Shown: positions 5,266 through 62,128 of the stretch, one piece after another
How the letters are laid out: the number at the start of each line of letters is the position of its first letter
Position numbering within the stretch: position 1 is the stretch's first letter
Assembly (NCBI GenBank): GCA_024231215.1
Contig: JAAEQR010000072.1
Coordinates: forward strand, 65,210 to 129,209
Direction: 5' to 3'
From: PVC group bacterium
GTDB taxonomy: Bacteria; Omnitrophota; Gorgyraeia; B26-G9
DNA: 64,000 nt
Position numbers and translations under genes: made by a program
The notes under the pieces: model-generated
Databases searched by the model: none
The model's input: the letters and a program-made list of their open reading frames with translations, nothing else
Told to the model about the DNA's origin: nothing

Positions 5266-5294
5266 GTTAACCAAGTCTAATTTTATGGTTGACA
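5265..5294 (+). promoter_or_regulatory. BirA-operator-like inverted repeat TGTTAACC-N14-GGTTGACA overlapping the bioB promoter/5'UTR
   Basis: Half-sites at 5265-5272 and 5287-5294 (7/8 palindromic). Resembles Firmicute-type BirA bioO half-sites TGTTAACC. Sits between the -10 and the RBS. Confidence 0.4.
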
Positions 5295-5312
5295 ATGGAG
5301 GAGATAAATAAT

Positions 5313-30922: not shown

Positions 30923-30932
30923 GGGCGAAACT

Positions 30933-32246
30933 ATGTTTTCGCCCGTGACAAAGAAAATTATGAATACAAAAAAATCAGTAACATATTATAAGCAGGCAGT
31001 AAAGCTTATGCCTGGGGGAGTGAATAGTCCAGTGCGTGCTTTTGGTGCGGTTGGCGGTAATCCTATATTTATTGACCGGGCTAAAGGATCTAAGGTATAT
31101 GATGTTGACGGTAATAGTTACATAGATTATGTATTAAGCTGGGGCCCGCTTATTTTAGGCCATGCACAGAAACAAGTTATTAGTATAATTAAAAAGAGTT
31201 TGTCCAGAGGTACTAGTTTTGGTGCTCCGACTAAGGCTGAAGTTGAATTATCGAAGATGATTAATCAGGCATTTCCCAGTATGCAGATGATGCGGTTGGT
31301 TAATTCCGGGACAGAAGCGACAATGAGCGCTATTCGGTTGGCTCGTGGTTATACTAAAAAAGATAAAATTGTTAAGTTTTCGGGTTGTTATCATGGGCAT
31401 AATGACAGCCTTTTGGTCAAAGCGGGTAGCGGTGCTGCGACGTTTGGTGTTCCTTCAAGCCATGGGATCCCGCGTGATCTTACCCGGGGAACGATTGTTT
31501 TGCCCTATAATAATATTGATAAATTAAAGTCAGTGATAAAGTCTCGTTATAAAGAGATTGCTGCGGTGATTGTTGAGCCGATTTGCGGGAATATGGGAGT
31601 TGTTTTGCCGGATAAGGGTTTTTTATCAGAGATGCGCAAAATTACTCGCAAATACGGGGTTTTACTTATTTTTGATGAAATAATCACTGGGTTTCGTTTC
31701 TGTTTCGGAGGAGCTCAGAAGTTATTTAAAGTAAAGCCGGATATTACTTGTCTAGGCAAGATTATTGGCGGGGGAATGCCGATCGGTGCTTATGGAGCGA
31801 GTAAGAAGATTATGCAACATATTAGTCCTCTGGGAGGGGTGTATCAGGCGGGTACGCTTTCTGGGAATCCGATTGCGGTAGCGTGTGGATTAAAAACTTT
31901 ACAGATTTTGCGTGAAATGGATTATAATAAGCTTAATAAGTTATGTGCTTATTTATGTAGGGAAATAACTCAAGCTTGTAACCACCATAGTATGAATATG
32001 CGCATAAACCGTATTGGCTCAATGTTTACGCTATTTTTCAGTCAAGAGCAGGTAGTTGATTTCCGGACGGCTTACAAAGCAGATACGGGAAAATACGCGC
32101 AATATTTTAGACAGATGCTTAAGGCAGGGATATATTTGCCGCCTTCGCAGTTTGAGGCTAATTTTCTGTCATTTGCACATACAGAGAAAGATATAGCATT
32201 TACAATAGCGGCAGTTAAAAAAGTGTTGGAGAAATTGAGGAGATAA
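30933..32246 (+). CDS. hemL: glutamate-1-semialdehyde 2,1-aminomutase
   Basis: Class III aminotransferase: [13 protein letters not shown]-Lys region ([11 protein letters not shown]), AGTLSGNP. Start chosen at MFSPVTKK (ATG 30933); the track ORF 30795 overlaps the upstream gene. Confidence 0.9.
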
Positions 32247-47086: not shown

Positions 47087-49268
47087 TCAATTATTCTCCT
47101 TATCCAATTATTATTTAAATCCGTTTGCAATGCCGGTATTTCTGGTAAGTATAACTATTTTTTTTATTGGATCGGTTGTATTATTCCAGAACAGGCGGTC
47201 GCTTATTAATATATCTTTCTTTTTAAAATGTTTTAGCGCTGGATTTTGGTTATTTACAGCTTCGATTGTGTATTGTTGTTTGAATGAGGCAGTAGCACAT
47301 ACATTGTATAAATATTTTACTTTTCTCGGTGTTGTTAGCATTGGTCCGAGTCTGTACTTTTTCTCCGTATGCTGGTCTAATGTTGCCAAGCGTCAGAAAT
47401 ATATGATCCCGTTGGTATACATAGCTTTTTATGTTCTTTATGGAGTAACTGTAACTACGGATGTATTTATCCTGCCGGGTATGCGGAAATATTTCTGGGG
47501 GTTGTATCCGATTTATGGGCAGGCAATGGGTGTATTCGTGATAATGTTTACGACTACATATTTACTTTCTTTCATGAATACATTTAATGCGTATCACAGG
47601 GAAACAATTCCGATTAAGAAAAGACAAAAAGGAATTATTGCGTTTGTTCTCGCCTTAGGATATCTGGGATCAATTGATTTTATTTCAAAGTTTTTTGATT
47701 ATACGGTTTTTCCTGTCGGATATCTCGCTATTTTTGTCTATATTTCTCTTGTTGCTTATTCAATTGTGCGCTATCGTGCTTTTGATATTGAAACAGTAAT
47801 ACATAAGACAGCTTTATGGGTTTTGTCTTTTTCTTTTGTTGTTATTCCGGTATTTTTTCTTTACGACTGGTTATTGTCGCATATTGAATTGAAGATTATT
47901 AAATTCGCTTTATGGACTGCGACTTTTCTGATTTTTGCTTTATATCTGCGTGTAGTTCAGCCAAAAATAGACCATATATTTCAACGTCGCAGAGCTGATT
48001 TAGAAATTATTTCCAGAATGTTTATCGAAGAACTGGTGCATTTAAAAGGCCTGAATAATCTTTTGCGTTTGATAAAAGATACGATTGCGGATGTTTTGTA
48101 TTCTCAACAGGTAGATATATTTATTTACAATCAGGAGCGAAAGATTTTTGATTTATTTAACCAGATAAGCGAGGCTAAGCAGAGAGCTTTTCTTAAGGAC
48201 GATGACCGGTTTTTAGAATGGCTGACTAAAAACAACAGAATAGCATATAAAGAGTTTATTTATTTAGATCCCCAATACGCGAAAATAAGACAAGCCGCGA
48301 AGAAATATTTTGCGCTTAATGATGCGGTTTTAGTTATTCCTTTAATTGCAGACGGAAAACTGCTTGGGGTGATTAATTTAGGAAAGAAGGCAAACTTAAA
48401 ACGTTACACGGCAATGGAGTTTAATTTTTTGAATACTTTAAAAAACGAATCAGCTATAGCTATTTCTAATTCTCTTTTATATGAGAATATGGAAGATCAA
48501 GTCAGGCAGCGTTCAAAAGAATTGTTGGAAATGCAGAAACAGCTGGTGCAGGCAGAAAAGTTAGCTACTGTCGGTACTTTAGCCGGTGGGGTAGCACATG
48601 AAATAAATAATCCGCTGGCGGCTATATTGACCAATGTGCAAATGCTTTTGCATTCGGCTGAGATTGCCGATCCATCGGATAAGGAGTCGCTTGAACTTAT
48701 TGAAGAGGCGACGCAACGCTGTCGGGTTATTGTGAAGAAACTAATGGTTTATGCCCGGAAGCCATTGCATTCTTCAGAAATCTCCCGGATAAACCTGTCT
48801 GCAGTGGTGAATAATGTTATTTCATTTCTTGAATATCAATTAACTCAGGAGAATATTGCTGTGGTTATTGATATTCAAGACCTTGGATGTGTTATAAAAG
48901 GTAATCAGAATGAACTAGAGCAGGTAGTTACGAATATGATCCTGAACGCAAAAGATGCTATTAAAAAGGTTAAAAGGGGTGGTACAATAGAAATGTCTTT
49001 AGTTACGAAAGGTAGATGGGTTTGCCTTGAGATTAAAGACGAAGGAGAGGGAATACCCCAGGAAATAAAATCAAAGATATTTGATCCATTTTTTACGACT
49101 AAAGATGTCGGGAAAGGGTTAGGGCTTGGGCTTTCTATTTGTCAGTCTATTATCGAACGTCACGATGGGGTGATTACGGTGGATTCAGAGCCGAACAAGG
49201 GGGCGGTTTTCACGATAAATCTGATTAGAGCAGAAGCAACAGATAAAATTACAAAAAATAAATCTTGA
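47055..49268 (+). CDS. sensor histidine kinase with N-terminal multi-TM (7-8 TM) sensor, GAF-like region, HisKA and HATPase_c
   Basis: H-box VAHEINNPLAAIL, N/G boxes (MILNAKDAI; DEGEGIP; GKGLGLGLSI). Paralog of the HK at 53875-56064. Confidence 0.8.
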   Translation: MKELKKRRMFNQLFSLSNYYLNPFAMPVFLVSITIFFIGSVVLFQNRRSLINISFFLKCFSAGFWLFTASIVYCCLNEAVAHTLYKYFTFLGVVSIGPSLYFFSVCWSNVAKRQKYMIPLVYIAFYVLYGVTVTTDVFILPGMRKYFWGLYPIYGQAMGVFVIMFTTTYLLSFMNTFNAYHRETIPIKKRQKGIIAFVLALGYLGSIDFISKFFDYTVFPVGYLAIFVYISLVAYSIVRYRAFDIETVIHKTALWVLSFSFVVIPVFFLYDWLLSHIELKIIKFALWTATFLIFALYLRVVQPKIDHIFQRRRADLEIISRMFIEELVHLKGLNNLLRLIKDTIADVLYSQQVDIFIYNQERKIFDLFNQISEAKQRAFLKDDDRFLEWLTKNNRIAYKEFIYLDPQYAKIRQAAKKYFALNDAVLVIPLIADGKLLGVINLGKKANLKRYTAMEFNFLNTLKNESAIAISNSLLYENMEDQVRQRSKELLEMQKQLVQAEKLATVGTLAGGVAHEINNPLAAILTNVQMLLHSAEIADPSDKESLELIEEATQRCRVIVKKLMVYARKPLHSSEISRINLSAVVNNVISFLEYQLTQENIAVVIDIQDLGCVIKGNQNELEQVVTNMILNAKDAIKKVKRGGTIEMSLVTKGRWVCLEIKDEGEGIPQEIKSKIFDPFFTTKDVGKGLGLGLSICQSIIERHDGVITVDSEPNKGAVFTINLIRAEATDKITKNKS

Positions 49269-49360
49269 GGGTCGATTTGTTCAGCCTGGATATTTCATGA
49301 ATTATTTAGGCTATGGAAAGGAACGGATTTTCACGGGGATGATGTAGGGAGGAACCTAAG

Positions 49361-49747
49361 ATGAAGGGCCGGATTTTAATTATTGATGATGAGGTGATTA
49401 TCACCAAAAGTCTGCAGAAACTTCTCTTAAAACAGAAGTTTGAAGTTATTGTTGCTAATAATGGGACAGAGGCGATGCAGGCAGTACAAAATGAAAAAAT
49501 TGATTTAATTGTCTGTGATGTGATGATTCCGGAAATGGACGGGATTGAGATCATAAAGCTAATAAGAGAATATCTTACCCAACAAGCAAAACCCCTGATC
49601 CCAGAAATATTGATTACCGGTTATGCGGATGAGGAAAAGTATAAGAGTGCGGTAGATTTAAAAGTTGCGGACTACCTGTATAAACCTTTTGATACGAGTG
49701 AATTCCTGGAGGTTATTGAAAAGAATTTAAATGGTGTTAAAAGATAA
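49361..49747 (+). CDS. stand-alone CheY-like response regulator receiver
   Basis: ILIIDDE...DLIVCDVMIPEMDG (phospho-acceptor Asp), conserved T/K positions. RBS GGGAGGAA. Confidence 0.8.
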   Translation: MKGRILIIDDEVIITKSLQKLLLKQKFEVIVANNGTEAMQAVQNEKIDLIVCDVMIPEMDGIEIIKLIREYLTQQAKPLIPEILITGYADEEKYKSAVDLKVADYLYKPFDTSEFLEVIEKNLNGVKR

Positions 49748-49759
49748 GGACAGATTGCA

Positions 49760-50992
49760 ATGGAGAAAAAGCGGGTAGTGATTACAGGAATCGGTGTTAT
49801 TGCGCCAAACGGGATGGGCAAAGATGCGTTTTGGCAGGCATTAAAAAAGGGCAAGTCCGGGATTAAAGAGCCAACGCTTATAGATGTAACTTATTTTAAA
49901 AATAAATTAGCTGGTGAATGCAGTGATTTTGATGCGGAAACATTTTTAGGTAAAAAAGGTTTGCGTAATTTAGACCGGAGTACAAAACTTGTTTGCTCTG
50001 CGGCAAAAATGGCTTTAGAGGATGCTTCTTTTGAAATGACTGATGATAATAGTGACGATGTTGGAGTGGTGACCGCAACGACTTTGTCTATCAGTGCGGA
50101 TATTGCTAAGTTCAGCAAAGAAATAGCAGATGAAGGATTTAAGTTTACTAATCCGGCGTTATTTCCTCCGACAACAATGAATTTCCCTTCCAGTCAGATT
50201 TCTATCAGGAATAAAATAAAAGGGTTTAATACCACGGTGGCCTCAGGATATACTGCAGGCTTAGATGCTCTTAAATACGCGGTAAATTTTATAAGCTTAG
50301 GAAGGACAAAAGCAGTATTGGTAGCCGGGGTAGAAAGCCTCGTCTTTTCTAATTACGTAGGGTTTTCTAAGGTTGGGTTTCTGGCCGGAGCAAAAGGTCC
50401 GGAACTATCCTGTCCTTTTGATAGCCGACATAACGGAATTATTCTTGGGGAAGGGACAGCGGCTTTATTAGTTGAATCTGAAGATAGTGCTTTAGAACGC
50501 AATGCGCGGATTTACGGAGAAGTGTTGGGGGTAAAGACATTTTTTGACGCGTATAAGCCGGCAAAATATGACCCTAAGGTTCGAGGTTTAAAACAGAGTA
50601 TGACTAAGGCTTTGGAGAGTTCTGGTTTGAGTGAAGAAGATATTGATTATATTTGTGCTTCGGCAAATTCTGTGGAAGAACAGGATAAATTAGAGACTCT
50701 AGCTATAAAAAATGTATTTGGTCTTTACGCAGAAAATATCCCCGTGAGTTCTATAAAGTCTATGATTGGAGAAAGCATTAGTGCTAATGGAGTACTGCAG
50801 ATCGCGGCAAGCCTAGGGGCAATCAACGAAAGTTTCATTCCTCCGACGATTAATTATGAGAATCCTGATCCGGAGTGTGATTTAGATTATGTGCCCAATA
50901 CTTTCCGAAAACAAACCGTAAATAATGTGTTAATTAATAATTTCGGTCCGGGAGGCAATAACGCAGCAGCAGTGATTGCTAAATATGATTAA
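49760..50992 (+). CDS. ketosynthase-like protein lacking the Cys-His-His triad (chain-length-factor-like KS partner)
   Basis: Thiolase/KAS fold throughout, but the active-site Cys position reads TTVASGYTAG and the His motifs read CASANS / GESISANG. Confidence 0.7.
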   Translation: MEKKRVVITGIGVIAPNGMGKDAFWQALKKGKSGIKEPTLIDVTYFKNKLAGECSDFDAETFLGKKGLRNLDRSTKLVCSAAKMALEDASFEMTDDNSDDVGVVTATTLSISADIAKFSKEIADEGFKFTNPALFPPTTMNFPSSQISIRNKIKGFNTTVASGYTAGLDALKYAVNFISLGRTKAVLVAGVESLVFSNYVGFSKVGFLAGAKGPELSCPFDSRHNGIILGEGTAALLVESEDSALERNARIYGEVLGVKTFFDAYKPAKYDPKVRGLKQSMTKALESSGLSEEDIDYICASANSVEEQDKLETLAIKNVFGLYAENIPVSSIKSMIGESISANGVLQIAASLGAINESFIPPTINYENPDPECDLDYVPNTFRKQTVNNVLINNFGPGGNNAAAVIAKYD

Positions 50993-51021
50993 TGAGAAAG
51001 GTTATTTGAGAAAGGTTATTA

Positions 51022-52230
51022 ATGAATAAAAAACGCAGGGTGGTTGCAACAGGACTTGGAGTGATATCCTCGGTTGGCATTGGCAAAGACGCGTTTTGGA
51101 AAAGTGTAACCAGCGGGACTTCCGGAATTACGGAAATTACTTCAGTTGACACCACAGAGTTTAACTGCCATTACGGTGGAGAAGTTAAAAAATTTAACCC
51201 TGAAGAATTTATTCCCAAAAGAAAAGTTCCTTTTTTAGGTAAAACTTCGCAATTAGCATTATCTGCGGCATCACTTGCATTAAAAGATGCTGGATTTTCT
51301 GAAAAGAAAGTTCCTTCTCAAAAGTTTGGGGTGATTATCGGGACTACTGTTGGCGAAAGACCTTTAGAAGAATTGGTGCAGGCTTGGGCCAGAGGCGGGT
51401 TAAAAGAGGTAGATCGAGGAAGGGTTTTTCAGGCTTCGGTGAATAATATTTCGGCTAATGTTGGGATTCATTTTAAAGCCATGGGGTTGAATCATGTGTT
51501 TCCGACAGCTTGTGCTGCCGGTAATTATTGTATTGGCTATGGGATGGATTTAATCCAGAGCGGTGATTTGAATTTTGTTCTAGTCGGAGGTGCGGAAGCA
51601 TTTTCACGGGTGGCTTATGTCGGATTCCAAAGGCTTTACGCAATGTCTCCGGATAAATGCCGGCCGTTTGATAAAAACAGAAAAGGGATGCAGTTAGGAG
51701 AAGGCTCGGGTGTTTTGCTTTTAGAATCAATGGAGTCTGCTATAAAACGAAAAGCACATATTTACGCGGAAGTTTTAGGCTACGGTCTTTCCTGTGATGC
51801 TTATCATGCTACAGCTCCGGATACACAAGGTATTGCTAAAGCCATGGGCAAGGCTTTAAAAGATGCGGATACATTACCCGAAGATATAGATTATATTTGC
51901 ACACATGGAACCGGTACTCCGATGAACGACAGAATAGAAACTGCGGCAATAAAAGAAGTGTTCAAAGATAAAAGTAAGGATCTTGTGATTAATTCTCTGA
52001 AATCCATGCTTGGGCATACCATGGGTGCGGCTTCGGCAATTGAAGCAGCGGCGTGTTGTATGGCATTGGAAGATGGGATAATTCCTCCGACAATCAACTA
52101 CGATGAATCCGATCCTGAATGTGATTTAGATTGTGTACCGAACAAAGCAAAAAAGAAGAAAATAAAAGTAGCTTTAAATAACGGGTTTGCCTTTGGCGGC
52201 AATAACTGTAGTGTGGTGTTTGGAAAATGA
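51022..52230 (+). CDS. beta-ketoacyl-[ACP] synthase (FabF/FabB-like), catalytically complete
   Basis: Active Cys in PTACAAGNY (codon at 51511-51513), His motifs CTHGTGTP and SMLGHTMGAAS, C-terminal NxFGFGGxN. Confidence 0.8.
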   Translation: MNKKRRVVATGLGVISSVGIGKDAFWKSVTSGTSGITEITSVDTTEFNCHYGGEVKKFNPEEFIPKRKVPFLGKTSQLALSAASLALKDAGFSEKKVPSQKFGVIIGTTVGERPLEELVQAWARGGLKEVDRGRVFQASVNNISANVGIHFKAMGLNHVFPTACAAGNYCIGYGMDLIQSGDLNFVLVGGAEAFSRVAYVGFQRLYAMSPDKCRPFDKNRKGMQLGEGSGVLLLESMESAIKRKAHIYAEVLGYGLSCDAYHATAPDTQGIAKAMGKALKDADTLPEDIDYICTHGTGTPMNDRIETAAIKEVFKDKSKDLVINSLKSMLGHTMGAASAIEAAACCMALEDGIIPPTINYDESDPECDLDCVPNKAKKKKIKVALNNGFAFGGNNCSVVFGK

Positions 52231-53270
52231 GTGAAATAGATCAGAAAATTAGTAGTTTGTTGAAAAAATACAAAGTTTCTGCAAAAGATAAAAAAGTGAT
52301 TGATTCTTTTGTTAAGCAAGCAATAGAGTATATTGCTTGCTTTCAGCAATTTGAGCAAAAAATAAAAGGCAAGCCCTATAAAAAATCACTCCAAAGAATA
52401 TTTGATAAAGAACAGAACAAATTAATTACCACGTTATATACGGTTGATCGAAAAATTAAATCTTCCGGCGTTAAATTTAAAATGAGGGCATTATTTAGAG
52501 AGATAGGAAAAAAATATATTTTCAAATCAGGAATAGCAAAACGCATTTATGATCGTCCCCAAGGTTATCCTGGGGATTTTTTAACATTCGAAATATTCTA
52601 TGACAACAAACCGATATCTAAAGGCGCAGGAGAATATTTAGATGTCTGGGCATTAAGACACGTGCTATCTTTAGCAGCTACGTATAGGAAAAACAACATG
52701 CAGGAGATATTGAAAAAGATCATTAGTGGAAAACGTAAAAAAATAAAGATATTAAACGTAGGTTGTGGTTCGTCCAGGGAAATTCGTGATTTATTGACCG
52801 AAAATATGAATCTTAGCAAAAAGCTTTCGATTATCTGTTTAGATCAGGATAAAGATGCATTAAATTATTCAAAAAAATGTATTAAAGCCTTGGGGAATGA
52901 TATAGATGTTAAGTTTTTGCAGGAGGATATTTTATCTCTAATTGGGGTAAGCAAGAAACAATTATTAATAGGTCGACAGGATATAATTTATAGTTTAGGG
53001 GTTGCAGATTACTTTTTAAAAACAGCTTTGGGTAATTTTATAAAATTTTGTTATAGTAGATTAAATCCAGGAGGAAAACTTATAATTGCTTTTTGTAGTT
53101 CGCATAATCCTAAATTATATGTTCATTTGCGATGGTTTTGCGAATGGAACTTTTTCATTAATGATGCGAAAAAAATACGTGATTTTATAGTTAAAGATTT
53201 GGGGATTAAGAAAACTAAGATTGTGTGGGAAAAGCCAAAACCTGTTTTTCTCGCATTAATGGAGAAGTAG
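52227..53270 (+). CDS. class I SAM-dependent methyltransferase with ~150-aa N-terminal extension
   Basis: ILNVGCGSSREIRDL (motif I), acidic motif II (LDQD), YSLGVADYF. Start overlaps the KS stop (ATGA). Confidence 0.65.
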   Translation: MSEIDQKISSLLKKYKVSAKDKKVIDSFVKQAIEYIACFQQFEQKIKGKPYKKSLQRIFDKEQNKLITTLYTVDRKIKSSGVKFKMRALFREIGKKYIFKSGIAKRIYDRPQGYPGDFLTFEIFYDNKPISKGAGEYLDVWALRHVLSLAATYRKNNMQEILKKIISGKRKKIKILNVGCGSSREIRDLLTENMNLSKKLSIICLDQDKDALNYSKKCIKALGNDIDVKFLQEDILSLIGVSKKQLLIGRQDIIYSLGVADYFLKTALGNFIKFCYSRLNPGGKLIIAFCSSHNPKLYVHLRWFCEWNFFINDAKKIRDFIVKDLGIKKTKIVWEKPKPVFLALMEK

Positions 53271-53271
53271 T

Positions 53272-53865
53272 ATGGATTTTTTATGTATGATAAAAAATAG
53301 AGCAGTTACAAGGAGATATGAGGATAAATCAGTTCCTGTTGAAATTGTTGAAAAGATTATTGATTCAGGTGTATGGTCTTCATCAATACACGGTTTTCAA
53401 CCATGGAAATTTATGGTTATAAATGGTAAGGATAAAATTAAAAAAATATCAGAGATTGTTTCTGATGTGCCAGTAGATATAGCTGGTGATAGTATGGGGA
53501 AATTGGTGAATTTTTCAGCAAGGGTTATTGCCGATGCGCCTTTATTGATTATGGTGTATAATACAAAAGCATTTACTAATGCTGCTGGTAAATTTTTTAA
53601 AATCAATCGGGAATATATAGAAATAGCACAAATGACAGAAATTGAAGGTATCTCCGGAGCGATTCAAAATATGATAATGATGGCGGAAAGCTTAGGAGTT
53701 GGGAGTTGTTGGTTAACTACTCCTTTGTTTTGCGAAAGCAAAATAAACGATTTTTTAAATATTACAGATAGGTTAGTTGCAGTAATAACATTTGGTTACT
53801 CGATGCAGAAAGAAGTTCGTTCTCCCCGAAAGAATGTTGAGACCAAAGTTAATTACGTGCGATAA
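53272..53865 (+). CDS. nitroreductase-family (FMN-dependent NAD(P)H oxidoreductase) protein
   Basis: RAVTRRYEDKSVP N-terminal motif. ~200 aa. Conserved GxxSCW-like region (GVGSCWLT). Confidence 0.6.
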   Translation: MDFLCMIKNRAVTRRYEDKSVPVEIVEKIIDSGVWSSSIHGFQPWKFMVINGKDKIKKISEIVSDVPVDIAGDSMGKLVNFSARVIADAPLLIMVYNTKAFTNAAGKFFKINREYIEIAQMTEIEGISGAIQNMIMMAESLGVGSCWLTTPLFCESKINDFLNITDRLVAVITFGYSMQKEVRSPRKNVETKVNYVR

Positions 53866-53874
53866 AATTTTATT

Positions 53875-56064
53875 ATGAATTTATTTACAATATCTTCGGT
53901 ATTAATATTTACTTTTACTTTATTAATAGGTATTATTGCTTATTGGAAAGGTACAGATAAGAAAATAACAAAGGTTTGGGCTTTGTTTTGTCTTTCTATA
54001 TCTATTTGGGGGATGGGCGGGTATATATTTTCATCAACAATATCCAAAGATGTAGCTCTTTTAGGATGGAGGATTACTAATATCGGTGTTATCCTTATCC
54101 CTGTGACTTTTTACCATTTTATCTATCTTTTTCTTCGGCTGCACAAGAAATCACATAGAAGAATTTTGATCGGATCATATGTTCTGGGTAGTCTGTTTTT
54201 AGTATTTAATTTTCTGCCACGGCAGTTTTTTGTAGGGGATGTTAGTTGGGTATTTGGTCAGTTTTATTATGGCGATTGGTGGATATGTAAAAGTCCATTA
54301 TATTTATTACTTTACATCCTTTTTTATTGGGTATTACTTTTATATGTATTTACATTGCTTATCACCCAGTATAATCATTTTAGCGGGAATAAAAGAGAGC
54401 AGTTGAAATATTTTATACTGGCTGCTATAGTTGGATGGGTTGGCCCGACTTTAATGTGGCCGATTTGTTTTAGGATATATATATATCCCTATTCAAATTT
54501 TCTCATAGCGTTCTTTCCTTTTATAATTGCTTATGCCATTATAAAACATCGTCTCATGGATATCAAAATTGCACTTACCCGTGGGGCGATATTATTGATT
54601 GTATACGCGTTTATTGTGGGCGTGCCGTTGTTATTTGTTGCTTCCGGGAGGACTTGGCTGACCGGATTATTTAATGATAAATGGTTTTATCCGCCACTGA
54701 TAATGTATACAGTATTGGCATTGCTGGCACCGTATATATATCTTCGTTTGCAGGCAAAGGCTGAGGCAAAAAGAATGCTTGAACAATATCATTTGCATCA
54801 GTCTCTTAAAGCTGCGTCAAAAACTACAATTGAAGTCCAGAGCGTTAAAAAACTATCCAAAATAATTCCTAGATATTTACTTCGTTTATACGGGAGGTTA
54901 AATAATAAAATAACTCACATTAGTTTGTTTCTTATGGATAAAAACAAAAAGATATATCGGTTGAAATCTTCTGTAGGGGATGAGAAACTGCCCAAGGATC
55001 TGAGCATCTCAGAAAACAGTATTTTAGTAGATTGGTTTACAAAAATAAGCCATGAGGTGGTAGAGCAGGGAGTATTAAAAGCCAAAGAAGTGGAAGTCTT
55101 AGTATATGAAGATATAGATTATTGGATGAACGAAGCTAATGTTTTACGTGCGCCATATCGCGGCTTAAAGAAAATCTTGAGAGACTTAAAAAAAACCATG
55201 GAAAGCTTAAACGCGCAGATAATCCTACCTTCTGTATATCAGCAGGAACTGTTAGGATTTTTGATCTTGGGGGAGAAGACTCCTGATTTATATACGAGAA
55301 ATGATATTGATACGTTTTCTATTCTGGCGAATGACAGTGCTATGGCGTTTAAAGCGGCGCGATTGTTTGAAGACTTGAAAATGACTCAAGCCCAGCTTAT
55401 TCAGTCTGAAAAATTAAACCTTTTAGGCCAGTTGGCATCATCCATGGCCCATGAAATTAATAATCCATTAGCGATCATTTCCGGAAATATCCAGCTTTTA
55501 CTTATGGATGTAAAAGACGAAGGGATTCGTGAATTACTTAAGAAAATAGATGAACAGACCGAAAGAGGGTATAAGATAATCCATAGGCTGCTGAATTTTT
55601 CAAAATTGCCGAAAGAAGATATTAAAGATATTGATATGCATGAGACCATAAATGAAACACTGGAATTGGTCAATCATAAAATTATCCATGGCAATATCAT
55701 GCTGGAAAGACACTTTGATGAGGTAAAGATAATAAAAGGCAATCCTATTCAGATACAAGAGGTTTTACTGAATTTGTTTGTTAATGCCATCCAGGCTATG
55801 CCCGAGGGCGGAGATCTAAAGATATATACCAAACAGCTGGATGGTTTTGTCCAGGTTGTGGTTGAGGATAATGGCAAAGGAATAGAAGCGGAAGATGTAG
55901 CTAATATCTTTGATCCTTTCTATACCAAAGGCAAAAAAGACGGAACCGGCCTTGGATTATTTGTCGCCGACCAGATAATGAAGCTTCATAAAGGTAGTAT
56001 TGAACTAAAAAGCAAGTTAGGCGAAGGTACTACATTTACCCTCAAATTCGCGGAGAAATTGTAA
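53875..56064 (+). CDS. sensor histidine kinase, paralog of 47055-49268 (multi-TM sensor + HisKA + HATPase_c)
   Basis: H-box MAHEINNPLAIIS, N box LLNLFVNAIQAM, G boxes DNGKGI / GTGLGL. Confidence 0.8.
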   Translation: MNLFTISSVLIFTFTLLIGIIAYWKGTDKKITKVWALFCLSISIWGMGGYIFSSTISKDVALLGWRITNIGVILIPVTFYHFIYLFLRLHKKSHRRILIGSYVLGSLFLVFNFLPRQFFVGDVSWVFGQFYYGDWWICKSPLYLLLYILFYWVLLLYVFTLLITQYNHFSGNKREQLKYFILAAIVGWVGPTLMWPICFRIYIYPYSNFLIAFFPFIIAYAIIKHRLMDIKIALTRGAILLIVYAFIVGVPLLFVASGRTWLTGLFNDKWFYPPLIMYTVLALLAPYIYLRLQAKAEAKRMLEQYHLHQSLKAASKTTIEVQSVKKLSKIIPRYLLRLYGRLNNKITHISLFLMDKNKKIYRLKSSVGDEKLPKDLSISENSILVDWFTKISHEVVEQGVLKAKEVEVLVYEDIDYWMNEANVLRAPYRGLKKILRDLKKTMESLNAQIILPSVYQQELLGFLILGEKTPDLYTRNDIDTFSILANDSAMAFKAARLFEDLKMTQAQLIQSEKLNLLGQLASSMAHEINNPLAIISGNIQLLLMDVKDEGIRELLKKIDEQTERGYKIIHRLLNFSKLPKEDIKDIDMHETINETLELVNHKIIHGNIMLERHFDEVKIIKGNPIQIQEVLLNLFVNAIQAMPEGGDLKIYTKQLDGFVQVVVEDNGKGIEAEDVANIFDPFYTKGKKDGTGLGLFVADQIMKLHKGSIELKSKLGEGTTFTLKFAEKL

Positions 56065-56172
56065 GTTCTTATTTAGCAATATGGATATTGTTTTTCTCTT
56101 GTAGAGGCTGAAATTATGCTATACTTGTAGTATAAGGGTAATAGCTCGATAAATGCCGGAGGAGGCCTGTAG

Positions 56173-56694
56173 ATGGGTAGAAGAAAGAATGTTCTACTTC
56201 TGAGTATGGTATTTGTACTTTTGTTAACTGTTTGTGCGTTTGCAGTTGATGGTGGGGGGATTCAATGGCGCATGTATTTTTCCGACCTGTTTAAAATCAA
56301 ATTTTATATTCCTGTAAATCTAAACTTAAGCAAAGTTACCAGTTCAGAATGGACCAGGCTGCAGGGGCGCACCAGCTCCGGGATTGAAGTTGAAGCGCAT
56401 TTTGATAATAAAAATCAATATCTGATTTTTATTAAAGAATATGCGGCGGAGACTCTGGGGATTAGCCATAAAGCATTTAGGATGATTAATAAAAGCAAGA
56501 AGAATGCGCTGGAGTATCGTGTCTATCTTGCGGATATGGAACGTAACGGTAAGAACTATAGGGTGGGGGTTATTGTTGCGAAGCATATAGATTATAAAAT
56601 CTCATATATGCTTTATTTATTAATGCCATATGATATGTGGGAAGATCGTCGTGAAGCTTTTACTTTTTGGTATGAAAACATAACTGGCCTTTAA
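56173..56694 (+). CDS. exported hypothetical protein
   Basis: Signal peptide (MGRRKNVLLLSMVFVLLLTVCAFA). No motifs recognised. Confidence 0.4.
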   Translation: MGRRKNVLLLSMVFVLLLTVCAFAVDGGGIQWRMYFSDLFKIKFYIPVNLNLSKVTSSEWTRLQGRTSSGIEVEAHFDNKNQYLIFIKEYAAETLGISHKAFRMINKSKKNALEYRVYLADMERNGKNYRVGVIVAKHIDYKISYMLYLLMPYDMWEDRREAFTFWYENITGL

Positions 56695-56836
56695 AACTAT
56701 TTAATCCTTCCAGTTTATTTTAACTTGCCTTAATTCTTTTTGTTTTATTATATTTTTTTGCTTGTCAAATAAAGTAAATCGTATTAAACTCTTCCTTTGC
56801 GTCTATTGAATTGCGTAAGTATTAACAGGGAGGTTA

Positions 56837-57733
56837 GTGATGGTTAAAAAGGATAATGATTATAATACAATTCTGCAAGAATGGAAAACCCTTCGTGGGG
56901 AAACTCTCCAATCTCAAAAACAAAGACTGAATACTTTCAGGACATCAATAATAATATTAGCGGTTATTTATATTGCGTATTTAATCCCGGGATTGAAGCT
57001 ATATAAACAGCCGTTATTTTTTCAGACATTCATTTTATTGTTTCTTACCCCGATTGTTCGTTTTGTTAGTTCTCTCAGGTTGCGGGATAGTTTTCATGCT
57101 TGCTATATTGAAAATTTCATCAAGATGCAATTACCGCAGGTGCGTTATATTGCCCGGTTCAGTGAATTTAAAAAGAATTTTCGCAATCAAATATCAGCCG
57201 CGGAAAGAATCAGATGTACTTATTTGCAAATAGGCATATCAACTATACCTTTTACAATCGGGTATTCGTTTTTTTTATTTGAGCCGGGGACTCTATGGTA
57301 TGTTCGTTTAGGTGCGTATACTCCTTATCATGACTTGTGGCTGCGGGTTGGTTTTTTCGTAAGCGCATTGATTTATTTTATTTGGACGATTTATGTTTGT
57401 CGTTATGATACGCAGAAAACAACTAAATTTTTTAATGAATTAAGGCAAATTCTGATCAAGGAATTGTTGACCGGAGAGATTGTTCCTTATGGCTTTAACA
57501 CTGGTTCGTTTCAGCATCCGGAAGCTTGGCATTCGCTTTTTGGGAAGGAAAATATTACGCAGAAGAAAGATATTTTATTGTCTCTAAAAAAGCTAGAAGA
57601 TGAATTCGCGGGAGTGAAATTTCTGATTAAATCTTTAAATAAAATGTGGTTTAAAAATCCAGTTAAAGATTTATTGTATTATGATCTAGAGAAAGAAGAG
57701 TATGGAGATAAAACGCGGTTGATATTAAATTGA
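56837..57733 (+). CDS. hypothetical integral membrane protein (4-5 TM)
   Basis: Hydrophobic segments. No motifs recognised. Confidence 0.4.
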   Translation: MMVKKDNDYNTILQEWKTLRGETLQSQKQRLNTFRTSIIILAVIYIAYLIPGLKLYKQPLFFQTFILLFLTPIVRFVSSLRLRDSFHACYIENFIKMQLPQVRYIARFSEFKKNFRNQISAAERIRCTYLQIGISTIPFTIGYSFFLFEPGTLWYVRLGAYTPYHDLWLRVGFFVSALIYFIWTIYVCRYDTQKTTKFFNELRQILIKELLTGEIVPYGFNTGSFQHPEAWHSLFGKENITQKKDILLSLKKLEDEFAGVKFLIKSLNKMWFKNPVKDLLYYDLEKEEYGDKTRLILN

Positions 57734-58912
57734 AGATCCAATAATATCTGTTTGCATCGGTAAATCGTGTCTTAGACTTTCGATGCTGAGAGAATTGGCG
57801 ATTGCTCTAATTGTTATTACGGGAGGAAAAGAGTTAAGCATTAGTAAAAGATGGTTATTAAAATCATTAAAAGAGGGGAAGAAAGGTTCTACTAGCCGGG
57901 GCGACAATTGATGTATAAGTGCAAACTTGTTAGAGTTTGCTATTATTCCTAATCTGACAGTTTCGGGCAGATCTTCTGTAGAAGATACAAATATCGATAA
58001 CAGGTCAATTAAATACGGAGCATATCGCGTTCCTCGATTGCTTATAAGGTCTATAAAAGTCGCGGCAATGCTTTTTTGAGCCTTGTGCAGTGCCATCTGA
58101 TATGGCCGGTAACCAGCCATGGCATCGCCGGAATCAACAATACTTAGTAGTTGAGCTTCGATGGTGGTATTTTCGCCTGTTTTTTTATGAGGGTATCCTG
58201 TCCCGTCAAAAGATTCATGATGTTCTTCCATTATTCGTTTTAGATTTTGGGTGAGTATTGAGTTTGGAAGAGGGAGTTGATAGGGGATTATAACGTGGCC
58301 TTGCATTATGGCGTATTCGTCGTCAGTTAGTGGCCCATCGGTTTTATTTATAATATGACTAGGTATTTCCGCTTTCCCGATATCGTGATAACGAGCTGCA
58401 AGGACTAAAAGTCCTAAATCTACAGCTGGAGGGATAGTAACAGCATTGAATCTTAGTCCATAGTGATAAGCCAGGATCATAACTCTTTTTTTATGATTAA
58501 CCGTCCATTCATCCAGGTTTTTATTATTTATTTCCTCTTTTTCTTTAGCTTCAAAAAAATCTATTAGATAATGTAAATCAGGTTTGGTGGCCTTAATTGA
58601 AGCCATAATTTTGTTTACTTTTAAATCAATATATTCTTGAGAGTTTCTCTCATAAAGAGCGTCTATGTCTTTTCGGATTTTTTGTGCTTGGTAATTTTCA
58701 ATTATTTTTAATCGTTCGGCTCTAGGCAAGTTTCTGTTTCCGGAGCTCTTTTTGAAGACAGATTTAAGCGATTTTTCCGAGATGGTTAAAGGAGCATTGA
58801 TATTATTGCGTGCATGTGGGCATAGTTGTGCGTTTGCAGCAGGAGCGGAAGTTAGCCAAACCGCGAGCAAAAGAATATAGACTGTAGTTTTTAGTAATAT
58901 TGAGTTCTTCAT
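57725..58912 (-). CDS. HD-GYP domain protein with N-terminal signal peptide/anchor and ~180-aa N-domain
   Basis: HD motif (LAARYHDIGKAEIP), GYP motif (HHESFDGTGYPH). N-terminal MKNSILLKTTVYILLLAVWLTSAPAANA. Confidence 0.75.
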   Translation of the reverse strand: MKNSILLKTTVYILLLAVWLTSAPAANAQLCPHARNNINAPLTISEKSLKSVFKKSSGNRNLPRAERLKIIENYQAQKIRKDIDALYERNSQEYIDLKVNKIMASIKATKPDLHYLIDFFEAKEKEEINNKNLDEWTVNHKKRVMILAYHYGLRFNAVTIPPAVDLGLLVLAARYHDIGKAEIPSHIINKTDGPLTDDEYAIMQGHVIIPYQLPLPNSILTQNLKRIMEEHHESFDGTGYPHKKTGENTTIEAQLLSIVDSGDAMAGYRPYQMALHKAQKSIAATFIDLISNRGTRYAPYLIDLLSIFVSSTEDLPETVRLGIIANSNKFALIHQLSPRLVEPFFPSFNDFNNHLLLMLNSFPPVITIRAIANSLSIESLRHDLPMQTDIIGSSI

Positions 58913-59083
58913 AAATGCCTAAGCAGTAACCTGATATATAAATACTTTTATAAAGTATATCATATAATGAGGTGTTTTTCAAGTTCAAGCTGGTTTTTAA
59001 TAATTGAAAAAGCCTGATATTTATGTTAAAATCAATATTTATAAAACTCGCAATTTAATAACTAAGTTACATGGAGGTTTACG

Positions 59084-60139
59084 ATGCTGGAAATTTTAAT
59101 AGTTGATGATGAACAGGAAATTTCAGGGGCGTTAAAGGATTTTTTTACAGCCAAGAGTTATAAGGTATTAGTTGCTAATAATGGGGAAGAAGCACTAAAT
59201 ACTGTACGTAAGCATCGACCGCATCTTGTGTTTTTGGATATTCGCATGCCGAAAATGGATGGCCTTTCAGTCCTACGCAATATTCGTGAATTGGATAAAT
59301 CGATTAAAGTAATTATGGTAACTGCTTTTGGCACAAGAGAGATTGTAAATGAAGCTATGCGTTTGGGTGCAGTTGATTTTATCCGGAAACCGTTTACACT
59401 TGAATATCTCGAACATGATGTTATGGAAAAGGTCAATGTTCAGTTATTTGAAGATCTTCGTAATGAAATAGATGGTAAGGACGAACTTATTGACCAGTTG
59501 CAAAAATTGAATAAAAGGGTTTCCCGTAATTTTTATCAAACAATGCTTTCTCTGGCAACGGCTTTAGAAGGCAGGGATCAGTATACACATGGACATTCAG
59601 AACGGGTTGATTTATATAGTAAGCTGATTGCGGAAGAATTAAAAGATAAAAAAACTACAGCGATAACTAATAAATTCTTAGATGATTTGCATATTGAGTC
59701 CCGGTTACATGATATCGGCAAAATTGCGGTTCCGGATGGTATTTTAAATAAACCTAATCGCTTAACTAACGAAGAATTTAATGAAATCAGAAGACACCCT
59801 GGAGAAAGTGCACGTATCTTAGCACCGCTAGAGGGTATTAAAGACCACATTGATGTTGTTTATAGTCATCATGAACGTGTAGACGGGACGGGTTATCCGG
59901 AGCGGAAAACTAAGGAATCAATACCTTTAAGGGCAAGGATTATTGCGGTTGCCGATGCTTTTGATGCAATGACTTCAGATAGACCGTATCGTAAAGCTAT
60001 GACTCGTAAAGCAGCATTTACGGAACTCGAGAAGAATAAAGACAAACAATTTGATGCAACGGTTGTAGATGCATTTTTCAACGCATATAACAAGAAAAAG
60101 GACAAAAGCAATAAAGAAGCAATGGAGTTAATACTCTAA
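59084..60139 (+). CDS. response regulator receiver + HD-GYP (RpfG-like c-di-GMP phosphodiesterase)
   Basis: Receiver (ILIVDDE...LVFLDIRMPKMDG). HD-GYP (HGHSERV, LHDIGKIAVPD, HHERVDGTGYP). Confidence 0.85.
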   Translation: MLEILIVDDEQEISGALKDFFTAKSYKVLVANNGEEALNTVRKHRPHLVFLDIRMPKMDGLSVLRNIRELDKSIKVIMVTAFGTREIVNEAMRLGAVDFIRKPFTLEYLEHDVMEKVNVQLFEDLRNEIDGKDELIDQLQKLNKRVSRNFYQTMLSLATALEGRDQYTHGHSERVDLYSKLIAEELKDKKTTAITNKFLDDLHIESRLHDIGKIAVPDGILNKPNRLTNEEFNEIRRHPGESARILAPLEGIKDHIDVVYSHHERVDGTGYPERKTKESIPLRARIIAVADAFDAMTSDRPYRKAMTRKAAFTELEKNKDKQFDATVVDAFFNAYNKKKDKSNKEAMELIL

Positions 60140-60157
60140 GGTGTCCGGAGGATTATT

Positions 60158-61207
60158 ATGTTGAAAATTCTAGTAGTGGATGATGAGCCGGAAATAACGC
60201 AGCTTTTGAAAAACTTTTTTCTGCGTAAAAATTATGATGTTTTAACTGCTAATAACGGTAGTACAGCGGTTGAGTTGGTAAAAACAGAAAGGCCGCATCT
60301 TGTGTTTTTAGATATACGTATGCCGCAAATGAACGGCTTGACTGCATTACGTCATATTCGGGCATTGGATAAATCGGTCAAAGTGATTATGGTAACGGCT
60401 TTAGAAGACGAGAAGATGGTGCAGGAAGCAGCGGAATTAGGTGCGGTTGATTATGTGCGAAAGCCATTTAATCTGGATTATTTAGAACGCGATGTTATTG
60501 AAAAAGTAAATGCAAAACTTTTTGTCGATCTGCGTTCTGAATTGGAAGAAAAAAGTAAATTAATTGATCAGCTGGCTAATCAGGTAGAGCAGATCAGTGA
60601 TTTGAATGAAAAATTAAAACGCAATTTTTATCAAACGATAGTATCTTTGGCAACCGCATTGGAAGCCCGGGACCGGTATACACATGGACATTCTGACCGG
60701 GTTGATTTATATTCAAAAGTTATTGCCGAGGAATTAAGGGATTCAAAGCAATGGGAAATAGACGATTTGTTTCTGGATGCTTTACATGTTGAATCGCGGT
60801 TGCATGATATTGGTAAGATTGCTATCCCGGATATGATATTAAACAAACCCGGGGTATTGACCGAAGATGAGTATGCACAGATTAAAAATCATCCGGTACA
60901 AAGTGCAAAGATTTTAACTCCCTTAGAAGATCTTAAGAAAAATATTGAAGTAATTAGACATCATCATGAGCGTGTTGACGGCAGGGGATATCCTGATGGG
61001 TTAAAGCATGACGAAATCCCGGCCAGAGCTAGGATTATTGCGATTGCTGATGCTTTTGATGCGATGACTTCGGATCGGCCGTATCGTAAAGCCATGTCGA
61101 TTGCAGAGGCCACAGATCAGCTGGAAAAAGGTAAAGGCGCTCAGTTTGATGCGGAAGTAGTGGATGCATTTAAGAATGCTATAGCACAGGGGAAAATACC
61201 AAACTAA
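60158..61207 (+). CDS. response regulator receiver + HD-GYP, tandem paralog of 59084-60139
   Basis: Same architecture and ~65-70% identical by eye (ILVVDDE...LVFLDIRMPQMNG; LHDIGKIAIPD; HHERVDGRGYP). Confidence 0.85.
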   Translation: MLKILVVDDEPEITQLLKNFFLRKNYDVLTANNGSTAVELVKTERPHLVFLDIRMPQMNGLTALRHIRALDKSVKVIMVTALEDEKMVQEAAELGAVDYVRKPFNLDYLERDVIEKVNAKLFVDLRSELEEKSKLIDQLANQVEQISDLNEKLKRNFYQTIVSLATALEARDRYTHGHSDRVDLYSKVIAEELRDSKQWEIDDLFLDALHVESRLHDIGKIAIPDMILNKPGVLTEDEYAQIKNHPVQSAKILTPLEDLKKNIEVIRHHHERVDGRGYPDGLKHDEIPARARIIAIADAFDAMTSDRPYRKAMSIAEATDQLEKGKGAQFDAEVVDAFKNAIAQGKIPN

Positions 61208-61267
61208 AGGCAAAAGTCAAAAATCAAAATGCAAAAATAAATAAAAAATTAAAAAGGGGATAAATAG

Positions 61268-62128
61268 GTGGAAAAAATTAAAATAGGAATTATCGGTGGG
61301 AGCGGGCTTTATGATATCGAAGGAGTAGACGATGTAGATACAGTAGCAGTAGATACTCCCTTTGGTGCTCCTTCAGATAAGATTATTTGCGGGACTTTAG
61401 AAGGTGTGAGGTTTGCTTTTTTACCTCGGCATGGTCGCGGTCATAAGATTTCGCCAACAGAGTTAAATTATCGGGCAAATATTTATGCTTTAAAGAGTTT
61501 AGGTGTGGAACAGATAATATCTATATCTGCGGTAGGCAGTCTTAAAGAGGAATTAAAACCACGTGATTTTGTGATTCCGGAACAGTTGTTTGACCGGACT
61601 AAAAGCAGAGTAAGTACTTTTTTTACAGAAGGTATAGTTGCTCATGTAGGGGTGGCTGACCCTTTTTGTCCGGATCTAAGTACTATGGCTTATGAGACAG
61701 CAAAAGAGATTGGAATTTCCGTGCACAAAGGGGGAACTTATGTTTGTATTGAAGGCCCTCAATTCTCAACGCGGGCTGAGTCTAATGTTTATCGTCAGCT
61801 GGGATTCTCAATTATCGGCATGACTAATATCCCGGAAGCAAAGCTGGCCAGAGAAGCAGAGATTTGTTATGTGACTGTTGCGTTGGTTACAGATTATGAT
61901 GTGTGGAAAGAAGATGAAGAGGTTAGTGTGGAAAAAATAATTGCAAATCTAACTGCAAATTCATCCAAGGCCAAAAAGTTCATTCGAGTTATATTGCCAA
62001 AACTTAAGCGTAGCCGCACTTGTGGCTGCCCCGATGCATTAGCTACGGCAATTGTTACGGCGCCGGATGCTATGCCGCAAAAGATCGTTAATAAGCTCAA
62101 GCTTTTGATTGGAAAGTATATTTCATGA
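61268..62128 (+). CDS. mtnP: S-methyl-5'-thioadenosine phosphorylase / purine nucleoside phosphorylase (PNP/MTAP family)
   Basis: IGIIGGSGL phosphate-binding N-terminus. MTAP-like core. C-terminal CGCPDALATAIV. Confidence 0.75.
   Translation: MEKIKIGIIGGSGLYDIEGVDDVDTVAVDTPFGAPSDKIICGTLEGVRFAFLPRHGRGHKISPTELNYRANIYALKSLGVEQIISISAVGSLKEELKPRDFVIPEQLFDRTKSRVSTFFTEGIVAHVGVADPFCPDLSTMAYETAKEIGISVHKGGTYVCIEGPQFSTRAESNVYRQLGFSIIGMTNIPEAKLAREAEICYVTVALVTDYDVWKEDEEVSVEKIIANLTANSSKAKKFIRVILPKLKRSRTCGCPDALATAIVTAPDAMPQKIVNKLKLLIGKYIS

Follow-up and report, generated by a model that had tools for sequence, protein, structure and literature searches.

Results

The HD-GYP locus

Three genes that encode proteins with an HD-GYP domain lie within 3.5 kb in a 64-kb stretch of DNA (64,000 nucleotides; hereafter the window) from a metagenome-assembled genome (MAG) of a PVC group bacterium of the phylum Omnitrophota. 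Gene A (57725-58912, minus strand) specifies a protein of 395 amino acids (aa), gene B (59084-60139, plus strand) one of 351 aa and gene C (60158-61207, plus strand) one of 349 aa; the NCBI annotation of the MAG lists them as MCP4649066.1, MCP4649067.1 and MCP4649068.1, respectively. These positions are exactly those given in an earlier reading of the same DNA that was made from the letters alone (the sequence-only reading). That reading saw in the three open reading frames (ORFs) a concentration of cyclic-dinucleotide phosphodiesterases. The three ORFs are confirmed, but the cluster is a composite of a conserved B-C module and of gene A, an orphan that was inserted and is unrelated to the pair, and not a recent local expansion. 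The set of metal ligands is complete in all three proteins: the HD, HH, D and GYP residues are intact, and none of the three is obviously a degenerate receptor, a possibility for which the sequence-only reading had allowed.

Genes A and B diverge from an intergenic region of 171 bp (58913-59083). The spacer between B and C measures 18 nt, as had been read before (60140-60157, plus strand), and includes the ribosome-binding site of C (Shine-Dalgarno sequence GGAGG at 60147-60151); no terminator-like site was found between the two genes. The pair is followed by the gene for S-methyl-5'-thioadenosine phosphorylase (MTAP; 61268-62128, plus strand; NCBIfam TIGR01694, 330 bits versus a cutoff of 275). 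On the upstream side lies a seven-transmembrane (7TM) sensor histidine kinase (MCP4649063.1; 53875-56064, plus strand), recognized by the Pfam models HisKA_7TM, HisKA and HATPase_c. The interval between this kinase and B (56065-59083) contains gene A and two further genes, both on the plus strand, which we refer to as orphan 1 (56173-56694, 173 aa, MCP4649064.1), with a signal peptide, and orphan 2 (56837-57733, 298 aa), with three hydrophobic segments. The kinase and lipid genes that had been noticed upstream are indeed present, i.e. histidine kinases at 47055-49268 and 53875-56064 and two beta-ketoacyl synthase (KAS) genes. Among the ORFs of at least 120 aa in the window no GGDEF, EAL or PilZ domain was detected.

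Genes B and C

The description of B and C as RpfG-like holds. RpfG-type proteins represent the commonest HD-GYP architecture, and in both gene products Pfam recognized a Response_reg domain (E=7e-32 for B and 1e-32 for C) together with an HD_5/HD domain, where the HD_5 match spans positions 5-170 of the 170 positions of the model. The receiver residues D8, D9, D52, T80 and K102 are present in both proteins. In a set of 36 C-type and 40 B-type orthologues (see below), D52 and K102 are kept throughout, D8 and D9 are kept except in a few N-terminally incomplete sequences, and T80 is replaced by Ser in three C-type sequences. Within the HD-GYP domain the residues H178, H216-D217, K220, H245, H269-H270, G277-Y-P279 and D298 (C numbering) do not vary in either clade. 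The guanine-recognition motif of B and C is the canonical RxY(R/K), and reads RPYR in most members of the clades; all metal ligands, the GYP triad and RxYR are thus invariant or nearly so on both sides.

At the position of E185 in PmGH of Persephonella marina, the glutamate that binds the third metal, a Tyr is found in 76 of the 76 sequences (Tyr174 in C). According to the HD-GYP census of Galperin & Chou, enzymes without this Glu, for instance with a Tyr in its place, constitute the binuclear class and stop at the linear dinucleotide 5'-pGpG (pGpG). On account of this non-acidic residue, B and C are predicted to be binuclear enzymes that convert cyclic di-GMP (c-di-GMP) to pGpG. Both look fully functional as judged from their residues. 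The clades differ in a few features: an insertion of 7 aa in the helical linker between receiver (REC) and HD-GYP domain is particular to C, the residues before the HH ligands are R267-H268 in C versus Y-S in B, and the Pro of the KPG motif varies within the B clade, B itself having KPN.

Among known systems, the RpfG family provides the closest likeness. Thermotoga maritima TM0186, Pseudomonas aeruginosa PA4781 and Xanthomonas RpfG with its kinase RpfC share with B and C the same two domains, the phospho-acceptor pocket and the full active site; the structure of PA4781 (4r8z) ranks with the best PDB matches, and in relatives of the present genome the sensor kinase is adjacent, as in the RpfG family. 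In contrast to that family, B and C are a tandem pair that has been conserved downstream of one 7TM-HisKA kinase, and whereas TM0186 has the third-metal Glu, B and C lack it. For A, B and C alike the best PDB sequence matches are PmGH (4mcw), V-cGAP3 (5z7c) and PA4781 (4r8z), with 5z7c on top for C.

Age and genomic context of the B-C pair

The sequence-only reading had taken B and C for recent paralogs. This could not be maintained, since the two share only 63% identity at the protein level and 48% at third codon positions (66% over the DNA), and each falls into a clade of its own with orthologues from many Omnitrophota. More specifically, a search of 5.8 billion proteins with C recovered orthologues at 68-74% identity and a second group, which includes B, at 59-65%. 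Many members of the two groups share contigs, and the closest relatives of B and of C are all labelled Omnitrophota. In a neighbour-joining tree the C-type clade (36 sequences) is separated from the B-type clade (40 sequences) and the two are reciprocally monophyletic; the B and C of the window each pair with a copy from one and the same nearest-relative genome, GCA_043826565.1. A tblastn comparison with the loci of relatives (L001-L007) yielded orthologues with 70-79% identity for B and 69-74% for C, always in the order B then C. A scan of genome contigs with C returned only relatives of 31-53% identity from many phyla, which were drawn by the generic pattern IADAFDAM, and did not return the close orthologues. 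Given the clade structure and the orthologue identities, the sequence comparisons indicate that the duplication is ancient: it predates the radiation of this Omnitrophota group, with both copies retained since. The adjacency of B and C is inherited by descent and A is a later addition.

The genomic context of the pair in the relatives is well conserved. In L001, L005 and L007 the genes run 7TM-HisKA kinase, B, C, MTAP, a glycosyltransferase similar to monogalactosyldiacylglycerol (MGDG) synthase, a lipid-A-type acyltransferase, GT2 and PCMT, and the gap between kinase and B amounts to 27-45 nt. In L004 this order is interrupted between B and C by an AAA_14/DUF4143 gene and is otherwise the same, L002 and L003 carry an AbiEii-containing insert upstream of B, and L006 is without the kinase. 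The C-type gene is followed by MTAP in all loci from L001 to L007. In L001, L004, L005 and L007 the gene that immediately precedes the B-type gene encodes a kinase to which the one of the window (53875-56064) aligns over its entire length with 54-59% identity. From the conserved gene order and the identity of the kinases we infer a branched two-component module, in which the kinase at 53875-56064 is the probable cognate kinase of both B and C, gene order being the basis of that assignment.

In L006 MTAP is immediately followed by a gene for a PilZ protein of 117 aa (8034-8387), the second gene behind the pair. The protein is a candidate receptor of c-di-GMP that is linked to the module, and its presence implies that c-di-GMP reception exists in this Omnitrophota group. 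Further upstream, the part of the window at 47055-53865, the 'kinase-rich lipid locus' of the sequence-only reading, is syntenic with L001 992-4637 and comprises a Polyketide_cyc/Shikimate_DH protein, a histidine kinase, a stand-alone REC protein (49361-49747 in the window) and a methyltransferase; unlike L001, the window has genes for two beta-ketoacyl synthases and a nitroreductase that separate the REC gene from the 7TM kinase.

The surroundings of B and C are also a hotspot of insertion in the relatives (L002 3122-6620; L004 946-1791, 6764-7912 and 10215-11647; L007 5013-5384). The inserted material consists of AbiEii and hypothetical genes upstream of B, the AAA_14/DUF4143 gene between B and C, and genes for a Y1 transposase, HipA/HipB-like proteins and 23S_rRNA_IVP. 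The insert that bears A fits in as one more such event.

The probable insert between kinase and B

None of the three genes between the kinase and B in the window was found by tblastn in the loci of the relatives. The simplest reading is that these ~3 kb constitute a lineage-specific insertion, with orphan 1 as its first and orphan 2 as its second gene, at a site that is variable in the relatives as well. For orphans 1 and 2 no family match was obtained in Pfam, NCBIfam or PADLOC, and no meaningful one in PHROGs; for A, Pfam gave nothing beyond the HD domain, NCBIfam and PHROGs no meaningful match and PADLOC no match. An origin of the insert (56173-58912) in a defence system or a phage was considered and found no support in PADLOC and PHROGs. 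Boundaries of a mobile element were looked for too: no convincing direct or inverted repeats flank the insert and its GC content does not deviate.

Orphan 1 begins with MGRRKNVLLLSMVFVLLLTVCAFA, followed after the predicted cleavage site by VDGG, and is preceded by the Shine-Dalgarno sequence GGAGGAG. Orphan 2 has hydrophobic 19-mers at aa 37, 60 and 167. The codon-frame scores of A and the two orphans are 0.19-0.24, as compared to 0.305±0.044 for the genes of the window and 0.41-0.43 for B and C. Orphan 2, as read from the GTG at 56837 (the first in-frame start), is absent from the protein collection as an exact sequence and the genes on both sides of it are present; NCBI probably annotates another start codon. 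The genes of orphan 2 and A converge and have 9 bp in common at their 3' ends (57725-57733). No terminator-like site was found between them, the only candidates being located inside A on the opposite strand (57921-57940 and 58163-58177). An exact match of 14 nt, TTGTGCGTTTGCAG, occurs at 56232-56245 and 58826-58839, i.e. in the codons of the cleavage sites of orphan 1 (sense) and of A (antisense), with weaker matches at the mirrored positions 56149/58911 and 56276/58771. It is probably due to chance, aided by the Ala-rich codons.

The catalytic core of gene A

Gene A is an orphan with a familiar core. Pfam recognized HD_5/HD only (aa ~138-277; HD_5 E=1.8e-17), and the catalytic core as delimited by alignment, PDB matches and an AlphaFold2 (AF2) model covers aa 112-312 (57977-58579, minus strand). 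In the search of 5.8 billion proteins the full-length sequence matched only itself; the next matches were 28-36% identical and confined to the core. When the core was left out, the N- and C-terminal extensions matched only A itself in a word-indexed search, and an exhaustive HMMER search, run with aa 29-135 of the N-terminal side against 1.84 billion representatives, gave only the self-match. The sequence-only reading had given A an extra domain of ~180 aa; what is found instead are two flanks of ~83 aa (aa 29-111 and 313-395) that match no family or protein. The N-terminal flank is basic and helical, with moderate AF2 confidence, and the C-terminal one is of low confidence.

A is absent from the loci of the relatives by tblastn. 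That it could be a duplicate of B or C was rejected on the scores, which are 63-65 bits to those two versus 112 bits to the best HD-GYP protein outside the locus. In L002, the nearest relative, a minus-strand gene of 311 aa precedes B; it was considered as a homologue and has no similarity to A.

Despite its isolation, A keeps all 15 invariant residues of a 64-sequence alignment at ~35% identity to the nearest homologue, among them H140, H176-D177, K180, H206, H231-H232, G239-Y240-P241 and D260. The retention of the catalytic residues at this level of identity implies that the active site has long been under purifying selection. In the PDB alignments as well as in the family alignment W136 occupies the position equivalent to E185, and A is predicted to be binuclear. 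The sequence of the core matches 4mcw, 5z7c and 4r8z in the PDB. Its AF2 model (aa ~95-310) has pLDDT values of 85-98, and the top Foldseek matches of the model are 4mcw, 4r8z, 9rbz and 3tm8, which include DvhD and Bd1817.

The ORF consists of 395 codons and is intact in DNA of 37% GC, and all segments of A have a coding score in the annotated frame and a negative one in the others. The start codon agrees with the NCBI annotation, and a promoter-like site precedes this first ATG. An alternative start that would remove the signal peptide was rejected: the next in-frame ATG corresponds to M103, and the 102 codons upstream of it are open and score as coding.

PmGH (4MCW/4MDZ) is among the top two PDB sequence matches of A, B and C; a structure was modelled for A only, and PmGH is the first structural match of that model. 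Its ligands H189, H221, D222, H250, H276, H277 and D305 map one-to-one on all three proteins. PmGH differs from them as a GAF-HD-GYP protein with a trinuclear site (E185) and an RxxK motif; A, B and C have W, Y and Y, respectively, at the position of E185, and A has RxxQ. The latter motif is formed by R269-P-Y-Q272 (58097-58108, minus strand), which aligns with DRPYKKA of PmGH and thereby with R314/K317. At the last position an R or K is found in 60 of the 64 homologues and a Q in two. An insertion of one residue in the KPG loop is unique to A.

RxxQ was described as the signature of selectivity for cyclic GMP-AMP (cGAMP) in PmxA, where the substitution Q518R turns a preference for 3'3'-cGAMP into one for c-di-GMP (Wright et al., bioRxiv 10.1101/600031; the signature is also given in the HD-GYP census). 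The substrate assignment of the sequence-only reading, c-di-GMP (or cGAMP), can thus be sharpened: by their motifs B and C are of the canonical RxY(R/K) kind and A carries the cGAMP-type motif, which is a signature and not a proof of the substrate. A shares RxxQ with PmxA (MXAN_2061) and other GAP HD-GYP proteins; PmxA is a Cache-2TM-HAMP-HD-GYP protein with a cytoplasmic catalytic domain, whereas A has one N-terminal signal-peptide-like segment and the insertion in the KPG loop. Likewise, V-cGAP1/2/3 of Vibrio cholerae are HD-GYP phosphodiesterases of 3'3'-cGAMP, and the structure 5Z7C is the second PDB match of A, but the V-cGAPs are cytoplasmic and have RxxR, and V-cGAP3 has tandem HD-GYP modules.

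The N-terminus of gene A

As the sequence-only reading noted, A starts with a signal-peptide-like segment. It reads MKNSILLKTTVYILLLAVWLTSAPAANA and continues with QLC, and consists of an n-region with K2 and K8, an h-region TTVYILLLAVWL and a c-region TSAPAANA, with predicted cleavage before Q29 (aa 1-28; 58829-58912, minus strand). The hydrophobic core comprises 12 residues (T9-L20), a Pro is located at -5 and Ala at -3 and -1, so that the cleavage site is of the AxA type. By rule-based reading, this corresponds to the anatomy of a Sec-dependent signal peptide for signal peptidase I (SPase I). In the AF2 model a helix (residues 2-22) is followed by a disordered stretch (22-43). The first five residues of the predicted mature protein are uncharged, R35 is at +7 and five K/R are found in aa 29-58. 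The segment resembles the N-termini of outer membrane proteins, peptidoglycan-binding proteins and S41 peptidases encoded in the same window. A home-made signal-peptide heuristic was run on the ORFs of the window; it chose cleavage sites poorly and was not relied on. The N-terminal hydrophobic segments that it picked out belonged almost all to envelope or membrane proteins, with one KAS as a false positive.

Two other modes of export were considered and rejected. A lipoprotein is not compatible with AQLC, which misfits the lipobox (L at -1, Q at -2), and export by the twin-arginine translocation (Tat) system is not compatible with the absence of a twin-arginine motif.

No second membrane segment was found in A. 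A marginal match at aa 155-173 coincides with the buried helix before the HD motif, which is present in cytoplasmic homologues too. Among the top 120 homologues the membrane-bound ones have at least two transmembrane (TM) segments, save one fragment-like entry. A is not of the type of the membrane-bound HD-GYP sensors, as it has one hydrophobic segment and no sensor domain in Pfam or NCBIfam. In this respect the argument of the sequence-only reading has to be turned around. It had supposed that a simple N-in anchor would leave the HD-GYP domain in the cytoplasm; with one anchor of the N-in kind, a C-terminal HD-GYP domain comes to lie outside the cytoplasm, and only an N-out anchor makes it cytoplasmic. 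The HD-GYP census mentions periplasmic sensor domains, and never an HD-GYP protein with a signal peptide or a secreted one. On balance, the N-terminus makes an extracytoplasmic location of A somewhat probable.

Putative promoters

That the divergent region of 171 bp harbours both promoters, as had been suggested, is plausible. In a scan of 4.1 kb (57400-61500) the two best sigma-70-like sites lie there, one in each direction. The site facing B and C (59004-59032, plus strand) reads TTGAAA-17-TAAAAT and the one facing A (58982-58954, minus strand) TTGAAA-17-TATACT, ~45 nt upstream of the annotated ATG; both match at 10/12 positions and have a TG-extended -10 element. B and C probably use a promoter of their own in this genome, as a consequence of the insert.

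Other genes of the window

Three further regions of the window, all on the plus strand, deserve mention. An ORF of 1997 aa (16007-22000) with an N-terminal hydrophobic segment has one weak Pfam match (PGM_PMM_I, aa 322-427) and looks like the giant, largely unannotated genes that were reported for Omnitrophota. The cluster at 27971-32246 encodes a delta-aminolevulinic acid dehydratase (ALAD), a radical-SAM/SPASM enzyme, two NirDL-like/AsnC_trans_reg2 proteins (siroheme-decarboxylase-like) and a class-III aminotransferase, a domain content that suggests the alternative, siroheme-dependent biosynthesis of heme. The six genes at 5289-10858 encode a radical-SAM/BATS protein (BioB-like), a class I/II aminotransferase (BioF-like), an alpha/beta hydrolase, a methyltransferase (BioC-like), an AAA_26 protein (BioD-like) and a class-III aminotransferase (BioA-like), and by their domains look like a set for the synthesis of biotin.

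Discussion

A proposed two-layered locus

The locus is best explained in two layers, namely an ancient B-C pair and a later insert that carries the exported-type gene A, an explanation that we hold to be reasonably probable as a whole. The older layer would be a branched two-component pathway, in which the 7TM kinase (53875-56064) phosphorylates both B and C, so that a signal at the membrane would pass via the kinase to B and C and lower the cytoplasmic level of c-di-GMP, with pGpG as the product. In this lineage only, ~3 kb with three orphan genes of envelope type would then have been inserted between the kinase and B, and the insertion would have left B and C with their own promoter in the divergent region of 171 bp. 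A would be a soluble phosphodiesterase of cyclic dinucleotides that reaches the periplasm or the envelope by export and acts on a pool that is distinct from the pool of B and C.

Several observations speak against this explanation. With respect to the older layer, the kinase and B are 3 kb apart in the window, their pairing being derived from gene order only, and an adjacent kinase is absent in L002 and L006. With respect to the substrates, the RxxQ rule has exceptions, as the V-cGAPs hydrolyse cGAMP with RxxR and an RxxS enzyme hydrolyses c-di-GMP (HD-GYP census); moreover, no gene for a diguanylate cyclase, a cGAMP synthase or a cyclic-dinucleotide receptor is located within the window. As to A itself, it comes from a single MAG contig, has a weak Shine-Dalgarno sequence (AGG) and no orthologue. 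Its aa 29-111 contain 17 K/R versus 8 D/E (net +9), which would disfavour translocation, and the K/R counts on the two sides of the hydrophobic segment tie within ~20 residues, which weakens the call of an N-in orientation. The export of A is in our view a lead and not a result, for it rests on one metagenome-assembled sequence and a rule-based topology.

Alternative explanations

The charges are what keeps alive the alternative that A is an uncleaved N-out/C-in anchored enzyme of the cytoplasm, which would trim a local pool of c-di-GMP or cGAMP near the neighbouring envelope proteins. The basic stretch behind the hydrophobic segment, both in its first part (aa 29-58) and over aa 29-111, fits the positive-inside rule. 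Furthermore, the known substrates of HD-GYP enzymes are all cytoplasmic, the census describes only cytoplasmic HD-GYP outputs, and the preservation of the catalytic residues despite extreme divergence argues that A meets a substrate. The form of the segment is less accommodating: a hydrophobic core of ~12 residues is short for a stable TM helix, the helix-breaking S-A-P followed by A-N-A and Q is typical of an SPase I site, K2 and K8 would have to cross the membrane, and a lone N-terminal anchor was not seen in any of the membrane-bound homologues that were inspected. A cytoplasmic A thus seems unlikely to us.

A second alternative concerns the older layer. One of B and C may be non-enzymatic in vivo and serve as a regulatory partner or a phosphate sink of the other, and this would explain why both were retained across the Omnitrophota with clade-specific differences (the 7-aa linker insertion, R267-H268 versus Y-S, and the variation in KPG). 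Precedents exist, as the degenerate HnoD regulates HnoB in Shewanella and branched networks of one kinase and multiple regulators with HD-GYP members are documented. However, regulators of the HnoD type have degenerate motifs, whereas the ligands, GYP and RxYR are invariant or nearly so in both the B and the C clade, and we consider a non-enzymatic B or C improbable.

Still a little less probable is the possibility that A is a young, chimeric or decaying gene, i.e. an HD-GYP fragment that the insertion joined to unrelated coding or non-coding DNA with a chance likeness to a signal peptide, and that has little or no function. Such an origin would suit a singleton in all databases searched, with a weak Shine-Dalgarno sequence, a codon-frame score ~2 standard deviations below typical genes and a C-terminal extension of low confidence, at a site that is an insertion hotspot in the relatives. 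A fragment without function would not be expected to retain 15/15 invariant residues at ~35% identity, which implies purifying selection, nor to maintain an intact ORF of 395 codons at 37% GC with every segment coding in frame and negative out of frame, behind a strong promoter-like site at the right distance.

The picture of the sequence-only reading, a recent local amplification to three redundant cytoplasmic c-di-GMP phosphodiesterases, accounts for three HD-GYP ORFs with intact catalytic motifs within 3.5 kb but is very improbable, as it is contradicted by the tree and the synteny: B and C, at the identities given above, are each nearer to orthologues elsewhere than to one another, and A is not closest to B or C and differs from them in architecture and specificity motif.

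Significance

By itself, the B-C pair is ordinary and its value descriptive, B and C being new members of a well-known family. What the comparison adds is that the Omnitrophota conserve a module of one 7TM kinase and two HD-GYP regulators inside a block of membrane-glycolipid genes, and this module is a tangible point of entry to the c-di-GMP signalling of an uncultivated phylum.

The explanation in two layers becomes more consequential where it concerns A. Extracytoplasmic hydrolysis of cyclic dinucleotides has a precedent in the periplasmic CpdB of E. coli (PMC4905662), which is annotated as a 3'-nucleotidase/2',3'-cyclic-nucleotide phosphodiesterase and not as an HD-GYP protein. If A is exported, CpdB would be a functional analogue only. 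The fold of CpdB is not known to be related to that of HD-GYP proteins. To our knowledge, HD-GYP domains have been treated as strictly cytoplasmic outputs. In its boldest form, the claim would be that A is the first extracytoplasmic HD-GYP enzyme, Sec-exported, soluble and binuclear, with a cGAMP-type pocket, and active in the periplasm or outside the cell of a member of the Omnitrophota that would be ultra-small and probably host-dependent; in that form it is rather unlikely to be correct. If the claim is true, A may scavenge cyclic dinucleotides that are released, or interfere with the dinucleotide signals of neighbours or of the host. An exported A would extend the turnover of cyclic dinucleotides to the envelope and the exterior of the cell, which would be relevant to the biology of host-dependent nanobacteria.

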